A stretch of DNA of 57,346 bases from a virus (lineage: Duplodnaviria; Heunggongvirae; Uroviricota; Caudoviricetes), in the IMG/VR virus record IMGVR_UViG_2597490083_000002. One strand, given 5' to 3'. The notes under the pieces were generated by a model. The model had not been told where the DNA came from, made no database searches, and saw only the letters and a program-made list of their open reading frames with translations. The translations under genes were made by a program, and so were the position numbers. Below are positions 52,359 through 54,344 of this stretch, piece after piece; positions within the stretch are counted from its first letter, which is position 1, and each line of letters starts with the position of its first letter.

Positions 52359-53771
52359 ATGGCAGTAAAGATTTCAGGTGTACTGAAAGATGGGGCGGGT
52401 AAACCTGTCGTAAATTGTGCGATTGAACTGCGGGCCAGAAGAACCAGTCCGACCGTTGTGGCACACGTTGTTGCCACTTGCGTGACGGACAATAACGGTG
52501 CTTATGTGATTGAGGCTGAGCCGGGGTATTACGAGGTTGCGCTTCACTGTAACGGCTGGCAGCCAACCCGTGTCGGGGATATTGATGTGGCACCGACTGA
52601 TGCACCGGGGACACTGAACGCGTTTCTGAATGCACCAAAGGATGGTGATTTACGTCCGGAGGTGATGAAGCGCTTTGAGGAAATGGTGGCGCAGGCGCAG
52701 CAGAGTGCCGGGGCTGCAGCCGGAAACGCACAGCAGACGGCGCAGGATGTGGCGGCAGCCGCAACGGCCCGTGATGATGCACAACGTTTTGCGGAGAAAG
52801 CCCGACAGGATGCAACCGTCACAGCTGAGGACAGAAAGGCCACTGCGGAAGATGTGACAAGCACAGGAGCAAATGCAGCCGCAGCCGGACAGAGCGCACA
52901 GGATGCCGCAGGTTATGCCCGCGCAGCAGAGCAGGCCAAAAATGACATTGATGCTGCGCTGACCGGCACTCTGAAAACGGCTAACCATCTGTCTGAAATC
53001 GCAGCAGCAGGCGAAAAGGCACAACAGAAGTCCCGGGATAATCTGGGGCTGAAAAGTGCGGCCACGATGGAAGCACAGAGCGACATTTACGACCGGACAA
53101 AAGGCCGTCTGGCGATACCCGGCGCATTCGGCTTTGGGTGTGCTTTTCTGCCTGAAGATGTTATCCGTTTTGACACTAAGAGTGATTTCCTGGCCTGGGT
53201 AAGGAATGCGCTGCCAGGTGAATATTCCGTTGCTGGCCCCTACGGCATCATCATACCCGACACACGGTTTGAAGGGGTGCTCAGCATCCGGTGGACTGAT
53301 GCACGCCCTGAGACAACAGAACCGCGGTACAGAGCCAAATCCCTTACTTTTTACGGCATTAACGGCCCCATTTATCACACCCGCTACCGCTACTGGCCCA
53401 TATCCAGACTGACCTGGGTGAAAATAAATATAACCACAGAAGATATTATTTACAGAATCGTGGCGAGCTCTGTCCGCAACAGATGGGGAGACCCTGACAT
53501 TGGCGGGCTGATTATTGCTGCGTACCAGGGAGAAGCTGACGGTGATAAAGTCATCAGACTTGTCAGGGGGCAGTCATACAGAGGCTCACGACTGGGACCG
53601 GTGGGGATTTCAGTGCCCGGTACTCCCACCGGAACGTATATAGCATCCCCACAATTTTTCATTACGGGATGTTCAGAGCATTCATTACCGGGGTCATATT
53701 GCGCCCTGTCCGGGGTGCCGGATGCACATGTCTCTGGCGCAATGCCCGGGCTTTTTATTCGCACATCGTGA
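52359..53771 (+). CDS. stf: Side tail fibre protein (Stf-like N-terminus, divergent C-terminal domain)
   Basis: N-terminus MAVKISGVLKDGAGKPVVNCAIELRARR matches lambda Stf; Ala/Gln-rich repeats; C-terminal third unrelated to lambda Stf. Confidence 0.7.
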   Translation: MAVKISGVLKDGAGKPVVNCAIELRARRTSPTVVAHVVATCVTDNNGAYVIEAEPGYYEVALHCNGWQPTRVGDIDVAPTDAPGTLNAFLNAPKDGDLRPEVMKRFEEMVAQAQQSAGAAAGNAQQTAQDVAAAATARDDAQRFAEKARQDATVTAEDRKATAEDVTSTGANAAAAGQSAQDAAGYARAAEQAKNDIDAALTGTLKTANHLSEIAAAGEKAQQKSRDNLGLKSAATMEAQSDIYDRTKGRLAIPGAFGFGCAFLPEDVIRFDTKSDFLAWVRNALPGEYSVAGPYGIIIPDTRFEGVLSIRWTDARPETTEPRYRAKSLTFYGINGPIYHTRYRYWPISRLTWVKINITTEDIIYRIVASSVRNRWGDPDIGGLIIAAYQGEADGDKVIRLVRGQSYRGSRLGPVGISVPGTPTGTYIASPQFFITGCSEHSLPGSYCALSGVPDAHVSGAMPGLFIRTS

Positions 53772-53781
53772 GGAATGCACC

Positions 53782-54344
53782 GTGGAAATTAAAAAAATCA
53801 TTAATCCCCGTTATACCGAAAGTGGCGCAGTAGACTGTGACGTTTTTTTTGACGACAGGGACCAGGCAGTCCCCTACACAGCCACCGCTGATGATGTCGC
53901 ACCGACGGGTCAGCAAATCTGGCAGGAACTGCAAAGTGGCAAATGGGGTGAGATAGCCCCATTCACTGTGACACCAGAAATGCTGGAAGCGGCCAGAGAG
54001 GCCAGACGTCAGGAAATTGAAGCATGGCGCACAGAACAGGAGGCGAAGCCGTTCACGTTTGAATGGAACGGTCGTATCTGGAATGCTGCGCCTCGTCACT
54101 GGGCCGCCTGTCCCCGGTAGTCATGCTGGCAAAATCTGTCACAGCACAAACACATATGGCGTGGAGCGATGCCGATAATCAGCAGGTGAAACTGTCGATG
54201 CCGGAACTGGAAGAACTGGCGGCAGCAATGGTGCAGGCGCAGGTCGATCGCAACGATGAGATTTATCGCCGTCAGCGTGAAATGAAAGAGGAGCTGAGCG
54301 GTCTGGATGATTTGGCTTCAATTCGGGCGTTTGACGTTGAGTAA
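53782..54344 (+). pseudogene. Tail-fibre-assembly-like region, apparently frameshifted (two overlapping ORFs)
   Basis: ORFs 53722..54120 and 54063..54344 overlap in different frames directly after stf; assigned by position only, no ATG start in frame after the stf stop. Confidence 0.3.

Follow-up and report, generated by a model that had tools for sequence, protein, structure and literature searches.

A mosaic side tail fibre gene and a frameshifted DUF4376 gene at the end of a probable ipaH-carrying Shigella flexneri prophage

The window analysed here is the whole stretch of 57,346 nucleotides (nt) of IMG/VR virus record IMGVR_UViG_2597490083_000002 (Caudoviricetes), and the genes under study are a side tail fibre gene, stf, and the DUF4376 gene directly downstream of it (52359-54344). 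The region very probably belongs to a lambdoid prophage of Shigella flexneri that carries ipaH, and forms the distal end of its late operon. Its fibre gene is intact and mosaic, with a lambda-type N-terminus and a C-terminal end unrelated to that of lambda, and is followed by a gene of a tail fibre chaperone family that is one base short and is split over two open reading frames (ORFs). The features that carry this finding are given below, with product lengths in amino acids (aa).

52359..53771, + strand: stf, intact side tail fibre gene of 470 aa (ORF; stop codon 53769-53771)
52359..52751, + strand: lambda-type anchor domain of Stf, residues 1-131 (Pfam PF08400 phage_tail_N)
52674..53063, + strand: Ala/Gln-rich shaft, residues 106-235 (by composition)
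53043..53768, + strand: distal module at the C-terminus, residues 229-470, presumed to bind the receptor (conserved LGLKSAATME...DIYDR motif through to GLFIR)
53770..53774, + strand: Shine-Dalgarno sequence GAGGA of the DUF4376 gene (read from the sequence, 7 nt before GTG 53782)
53782..54344, + strand: DUF4376 gene, tail fibre chaperone family, a pseudogene by a 1-nt deletion (PF14301 split over two ORFs)
53782..54120, + strand: 5' fragment, 112 aa from GTG (an ATG at 53722, in the style of the Prokaryotic Genome Annotation Pipeline, PGAP, would give 132 aa)
between 54088 and 54089, + strand: frameshift site, one A missing (GCTG^CGCCTCGTCA)
54063..54344, + strand: 3' fragment, a 93-aa ORF in the other frame with the bulk of the DUF4376 domain (38.1 bits over PF14301 positions 30-98; cut-off 25)

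The stf ORF spans 52317-53771, and the lambda-like start MAVKISGVLKDG at 52359 yields the 470-aa protein. This protein matches phrog_2636 'tail fiber protein' (E 3.8e-215), is exactly RefSeq WP_094106026.1 of S. flexneri, and has a 470-aa counterpart gene at the equivalent position in the enteroinvasive Escherichia coli (EIEC) strain CFSAN029787. Its residues 1-131 match PF08400 with 164.2 bits (cut-off 26.6, E 2e-48), and PF13620 CarboxypepD_reg is also matched in the N-terminal domain, with 33.8 bits. A preliminary description of this DNA, made from the sequence alone, had held that about 30 N-terminal residues match lambda Stf almost exactly. All of residues 1-12 and 24 of residues 1-30 agree with lambda, but the similarity reaches as far as residues ~121-131, with 60 of 121 residues identical (50%) over residues 1-121 (BLASTP, E 2e-33). 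Given the PF08400 score and its position after J and lom, an order shared with lambda and EIEC, the fibre belongs to the lambda-type prophage side tail fibres. The same description called the middle of the protein an Ala/Gln-rich repeat region: Ala makes up 32% and Gln 10% of residues 106-235, but the "repeat" is a compositional bias, since a periodic repeat was sought in the shaft with a best protein self-offset identity of 24% and none at the DNA level, and direct or inverted repeats in 52300-54600 amounted to short chance-level matches. The length of the shaft differs between homologues, Stf having 470 aa here and 567 aa in STEC313.

Beyond the anchor, no significant BLASTP alignment was obtained between the rest of Stf and either lambda orf-401 past residue 121 or lambda orf-314. 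Stf is thus not lambda Stf proper, its C-terminal ~240 residues being unrelated to lambda's, and the earlier statements that this part is unlike lambda Stf and rich in certain residues stand (G 11%, P 8%, Y 5% and W 2% over residues 250-470). The distal module starts at a conserved junction, 'LGLKSAATME..DIYDR..PGAFGFG'. An exhaustive HMMER scan of 1.84 billion representatives placed 94 clusters (i.e., clusters at 50% identity) in the module family at E<=0.001. Full-length matches end at the protein C-terminus, some proteins carry 2-3 matched stretches, and the module is joined to lambda-type, tail-collar (PF12571) or Phage_fiber_2 (PF03406) N-termini. It was seen in phiP27, Rac-SA53, Goslar and Av-05, the last a virulent phage of the Vequintavirinae. 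Since a lambda-type anchor here carries a non-lambda distal end that is also borne by fibres with other N-termini, the proposal of a swapped receptor-binding module is borne out as regards the swap: the ~240-residue module has been exchanged horizontally, and it presumably binds a cell-surface receptor.

The Pfam scan gave no domain on the C-terminal part of Stf, and neither the fibre-module profile nor the DUF4376 protein, each searched against PDB sequences, brought up a relevant match. One PDB entry matched by the module profile, 9d93, was discarded because the match falls in N-terminal columns contributed by other members of the alignment. As a side observation, the window's Stf carries a private one-codon deletion at residue ~353 (53412-53420), before an invariant Trp (RLT-WVK, versus RLT[D/G]WVK in all close homologues), as well as two substitutions, C344R and S421G; the EIEC CFSAN029787 protein has another one-codon deletion (GRLG-II).

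The two ORFs downstream of stf (53722/53782-54120 and 54063-54344) overlap by 58 nt in differing frames, as had been seen before. In the Pfam scan, DUF4376 profile positions 1-27 fall on the first ORF and positions 30-98 on the second, and because the domain is divided between them in this way the two ORFs are one frameshifted gene. The preliminary description found no clear start for them, yet GTG 53782 lies 7 nt after GAGGA, and it coincides with the start of the 187-189-aa homologues; ATG 53722, the PGAP choice, would make the gene overlap stf and is unlikely to be the true start. With one A put in, the sequence reads as a 187-aa ORF that matches the intact Shigella/EIEC alleles. The intact 187/207-aa allele matches PF14301 with 61.7 bits and phrog_1141 with E 8.7e-89; its 207-aa form is present on 79 contigs, and the EIEC gene is intact, with 624 nt from the annotated ATG.

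Compared with EIEC, the window shows a short differing patch with a net loss of one base, whereas compared with two S. flexneri contigs (L004 and L005) it shows a clean 1-nt deletion. Those contigs have GCTGACGCCTCGTCA (N-A-D-A-S-S) at the site, a minority S. flexneri allele, where the common allele has GCTGGCCCCGACTCA (N-A-G-P-D-S). In almost every homologue the protein has N-A-G-P-D/N-S-L there; the alleles told apart at the frameshift site are GCTGCGCCTCG, GCTGACGCCTCG and GCTGGCCCCGAC. The reading frame of the window copy is not intact, and a full-length chaperone cannot be made from an allele split in the middle of the DUF4376 domain, presumably with loss of function. The earlier suspicion of a defective cognate chaperone therefore agrees with a gene that is frameshifted relative to intact EIEC/Shigella alleles, in a family with proven fibre-chaperone members. 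Its label of a frame-split assembly-like region is right about a split helper gene, but the gene belongs to DUF4376 and is not a lambda-type tfa. The latter candidate was rejected, as lambda Tfa in a tblastn search against 53700-54700 found nothing (E>1) and the DUF4376 gene has no Caudo_TAP match.

The pairing of the two genes recurs elsewhere. Every relative of the distal module that was located has a DUF4376 gene directly 3' of it, including all three distant homologues that could be located (34-44% identical). In STEC313, the fibre is 52% identical over the distal 372 residues and is followed by a DUF4376 gene with 77% identity, in a myovirus-type baseplate context; in the virulent phage Av-05, the module is 35% identical and the 189-aa product of the next gene shares 37% identity with the DUF4376 protein. 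Because all located relatives of the module precede a DUF4376 gene, the fibre module and the DUF4376 gene form a co-transferred cassette. The same two-gene cassette, made of PHROGs 2636 and 1141, is found in phiP27, Rac-SA53, SerU-LTIIb, Av-05 (Av05_0076/0077) and STEC313. Across these E. coli phage cassettes the distal module is 30-52% and the DUF4376 protein 37-77% identical to that of the window. Those cassettes are intact and sit in functional or other backbones (Mu-like, Vequintavirinae), whereas the Shigella copy is frameshifted and lies beside ipaH. A further occurrence was observed in a Mu-like prophage of E. coli GCA_974496725.1 (contig L008, positions 3001-6588), where the same fibre module stands as an ORF of its own (263 aa). 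A DUF4376 gene comes next, then com and mom, then a gene for a YadA-type trimeric autotransporter adhesin.

A function for the DUF4376 protein is suggested by characterised members of its family. The H-fibre of Campylobacter CJIE1 requires the co-expressed downstream DUF4376 gene (PMC7882524), and gp27 of Alteromonas phage V22 is essential for active fibres (PMC7289586; PMC10579305). V22 (gp26/gp27) and A5 (gp8/gp9) likewise have a fibre gene followed by a gene for a ~190-240-aa protein with a C-terminal DUF4376 domain, and this module occurs across unrelated phage morphotypes. The window's DUF4376 protein is placed in this family by the shared Pfam domain, and the fibre proteins differ. By this analogy, the DUF4376 protein would be the cognate intermolecular chaperone of Stf. 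An S. sonnei homologue with 95% identity was modelled with a predicted local distance difference test (pLDDT) score of 74. Its model shows a three-strand sheet at the N-terminus, then a long helix and a beta-hairpin (FEWNGRIWNA), and helices at the C-terminus, in agreement with what has been published on the Alteromonas chaperones (PMC10579305). On this model, the 5' fragment is predicted to keep the three-strand sheet, the first long helix and the hairpin, and a truncated product would be without the C-terminal helices, since the frameshift sits right after the hairpin. Fold searches with the models did not recover the proposed likeness to intramolecular chaperone (IMC) domains (T5 pb1 / K1F endosialidase C-terminal IMC).

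In the proposed mechanism, Stf would be a mosaic trimeric side fibre attached to the tail tip by its lambda-type N-terminal domain, with the Ala-rich shaft following the anchor and the distal module at the fibre end. The DUF4376 chaperone would help the distal module trimerise, by analogy with V22 gp27 and the CJIE1 protein, for which a need in fibre folding or trimerisation has been shown, and the single-base deletion at 54088/54089 would leave the prophage with no full-length chaperone.

Some results weigh against this reading. The experimental evidence comes from outside the E. coli/Shigella DUF4376 subfamily, and in Alteromonas dependence varies: V22 needs its chaperone, whereas the A5 fibre folds without its DUF4376 chaperone gp9 (PMC10579305), so chaperone loss need not inactivate a fibre. 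The AlphaFold2 monomer models are of moderate quality (pLDDT 68 and 74), and neither receptor-binding domains of known structure nor intramolecular chaperone domains matched them convincingly. In addition, the frameshift allele was seen in this window alone: the ORF products are absent from a collection of 15 billion proteins, and an exact-pattern scan of species-representative genomes (35 nt, with or without the extra base) gave 0 matches.

This uniqueness, together with the intact allele being widespread in Shigella and EIEC, is also what favours a sequencing or assembly error, with the DUF4376 gene intact in the living strain. We consider such an error improbable. The missing base lies outside a homopolymer (GCTG^CGCC), and PGAP gives no proteins for pseudogenes, so absence from protein collections is expected. 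Moreover, the window holds two further frameshifted structural genes, J (AAAC[T]GTC) and the portal gene, both broken outside homopolymers, as well as several insertion sequence (IS) copies, and multiple frameshifts with IS copies are the usual pattern of Shigella prophage remnants. That the two ORFs yield one protein by programmed ribosomal frameshifting, or act as two polypeptides, has a negligible probability. Programmed frameshifts are indeed known from other phage tail operons (lambda G/GT), and the ORFs overlap by the 58 nt noted above. Read directly, however, this overlap has no slippery heptamer of the form X XXY YYZ, each homologue examined is encoded in a single frame (187-207 aa), the break falls inside the Pfam domain, and the ATG of the second ORF has no Shine-Dalgarno sequence; programmed frameshifting was rejected on the missing slippery site and the single-frame homologues.

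The remaining alternative concerns what is lost. If the DUF4376 protein were a structural distal cap or adhesin of the mature fibre, and not just a chaperone, its loss would alter or abolish receptor recognition instead of folding. The PHROG and several phage records name the family 'tail fiber protein', TfaMu remains bound to the Mu fibre, as the Campylobacter paper notes (PMC7882524), and the Alteromonas chaperones have been proposed as transient fibre caps, with 3:3 complexes with the fibre knob predicted (PMC10579305). The cap proposed there is, however, a transient one, the 'tail fiber protein' labels are automatic annotations, and DUF4376 proteins are not known to occur in virions. We therefore regard a structural role as unlikely and retain the reading of a cognate chaperone lost by a frameshift.

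A wider interpretation, which joins two ideas and is offered tentatively, as a doubtful possibility, bears on the cassette and on the frameshift site. The module and its DUF4376 partner may be an uncharacterised receptor-recognition cassette that moves between lambdoid, Mu-like, Vequintavirinae and jumbo coliphages. At the frameshift site, a 7-nt patch, CGCCTCG (54089-54095), is that of the minority L004/L005 allele, while its two flanks follow the common EIEC/Shigella allele for more than 300 nt; such a mosaic patch may have arisen by micro gene conversion between Shigella's several paralogous ipaH prophages.

The genes around the cassette follow the order J - lom - stf - DUF4376 gene - tfa remnant - terminator - ipaH (convergent) - ybhB. 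The neighbouring features are as follows.

48148-49125 and 49034-51628: J, in split ORFs directly 5' of lom (PF24801 FNIII-A_GpJ)
51696-52295: lom (Ail/Lom PF06316, E 3.8e-124)
52322..52343, + strand: candidate terminator-like hairpin in the lom-stf gap (by consensus scan; stem of 8 pairs, 6 of them GC, then TTTTGT)
54344..54523, + strand: 59-aa ORF, probable lambda/Mu-type tfa remnant (phrog_7784 over its full length, E 1.5e-44)
54460..54481, + strand: strong terminator-like hairpin at the tail operon end, facing ipaH and inside the 59-aa ORF (9-pair stem with 8 GC pairs, then GTTTTT)
54524..56287, - strand: ipaH (IpaHa), type III secretion system (T3SS) effector E3 ubiquitin ligase, cargo gene (587-aa LRR/NEL, convergent)
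6181-6999 (+), 19545-20363 (-), 16943-17782 (+) and 22811-23650 (-): IS3-family transposase ORFs, two pairs of 272-aa and 279-aa types, with rve domains
31138-31254, - strand: ALIL pseudoknot, a frameshift element (RF01497, 120 bits)

The start of the 59-aa ORF overlaps the stop of the DUF4376 gene (TAATG). The ORF also resembles, weakly, phrog_136 'tail fiber assembly' (E 8e-4) and Caudo_TAP (PF02413; 16.3 bits over positions 66-98, short of the 22.1-bit cut-off), and it is probably a leftover tfa, displaced on arrival of the fibre-end/DUF4376 cassette. In comparison with lambda Stf/Tfa, the window is thus alike in its position after J and lom, its homologous anchor, its Ala-rich shaft, and its fibre gene followed by a small helper gene; it is unlike in its distal ~240 residues and in having a DUF4376 protein, not a Tfa-like one, as the helper, a Tfa-type gene being kept merely as this 59-aa probable remnant. 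A 9-nt direct repeat, AACTGGCGG, was also observed at 54214-54227 in the DUF4376 gene and at 54357-54370 in the 59-aa ORF. In S. flexneri 2457T, the junction of a 181-aa fusion protein (P0078) coincides exactly with this repeat, a sign that another prophage copy underwent a deletion, presumably by recombination between the repeat copies. An Rfam scan of 52-54.6 kb gave no match.

Downstream, ipaH is placed between the fibre module and the right-end ORF (56870-57346), which was recognised by eye and which we take to be ybhB, neighbour of the lambda attachment site. At the left end, positions 1048-2535 hold a DcuC-family C4-dicarboxylate carrier gene (PF03606). As dcuC and ybhB are presumably far apart in E. 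coli K-12, their presence at the two ends of the window would imply a rearrangement or deletion in the genome. The IpaHa protein is exactly RefSeq WP_038404323.1 of S. flexneri. EIEC strains carry the same block with 97.7-98.8% DNA identity (98.8% over window positions 52300-54560 in CFSAN029787), annotated as 'prophage tail fiber N-terminal domain-containing protein', 'DUF4376 domain-containing protein' and 'ipaH' in that order, with ipaHe/ipaHd at the position equivalent to the window's ipaH. Phage-borne T3SS effectors usually sit after tail fibre genes, near the attachment site, and lambdoid prophages of enterohaemorrhagic E. coli (EHEC) Sakai and the Salmonella Gifsy prophages, like the window, have a T3SS effector gene 3' of their tail fibre genes, beside the attachment site (PMC3530523). 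The effector differs, being IpaH in the window (as in Shigella/EIEC) and Nle or Sse effectors in the Sakai and Gifsy loci.

Decay is not confined to the chaperone gene. In comparison with the intact 3480-nt gpJ gene of EIEC CFSAN029787, J has a 1-nt insertion (GGGGAAAC[T]GTC) near 49016. The lambda-family portal gene is split within 34872-36465, with PF05136 positions 2-288 in 34872-35927 and positions 288-354 in 35842-36465, a probable further frameshift. Taken together, the IS3 transposase ORFs and the ALIL element point to multiple IS insertions within and near the prophage. Given the frameshifted J and portal genes and the inserted IS elements, the prophage makes no infectious particles regardless of the state of its chaperone. 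Two tRNA clusters were also observed, at 18423-18729 and 27460-27767, with four genes each, near-equal scores and spacing, and ~9 kb between them; this suggests either that a prophage segment was duplicated or that an IS-mediated rearrangement brought two prophage pieces together.

Hence, the stf/DUF4376 region is an ordinary, already catalogued piece of a defective prophage, and its significance goes little beyond annotation. For phage engineering, the fibre-end/DUF4376 cassette is a candidate exchangeable host-range module. For Shigella genomics, the chaperone lesion is part of the ordinary decay of a Shigella prophage around a retained effector gene, a further case of ipaH-carrying prophages being retained for their cargo while their structural genes decay.

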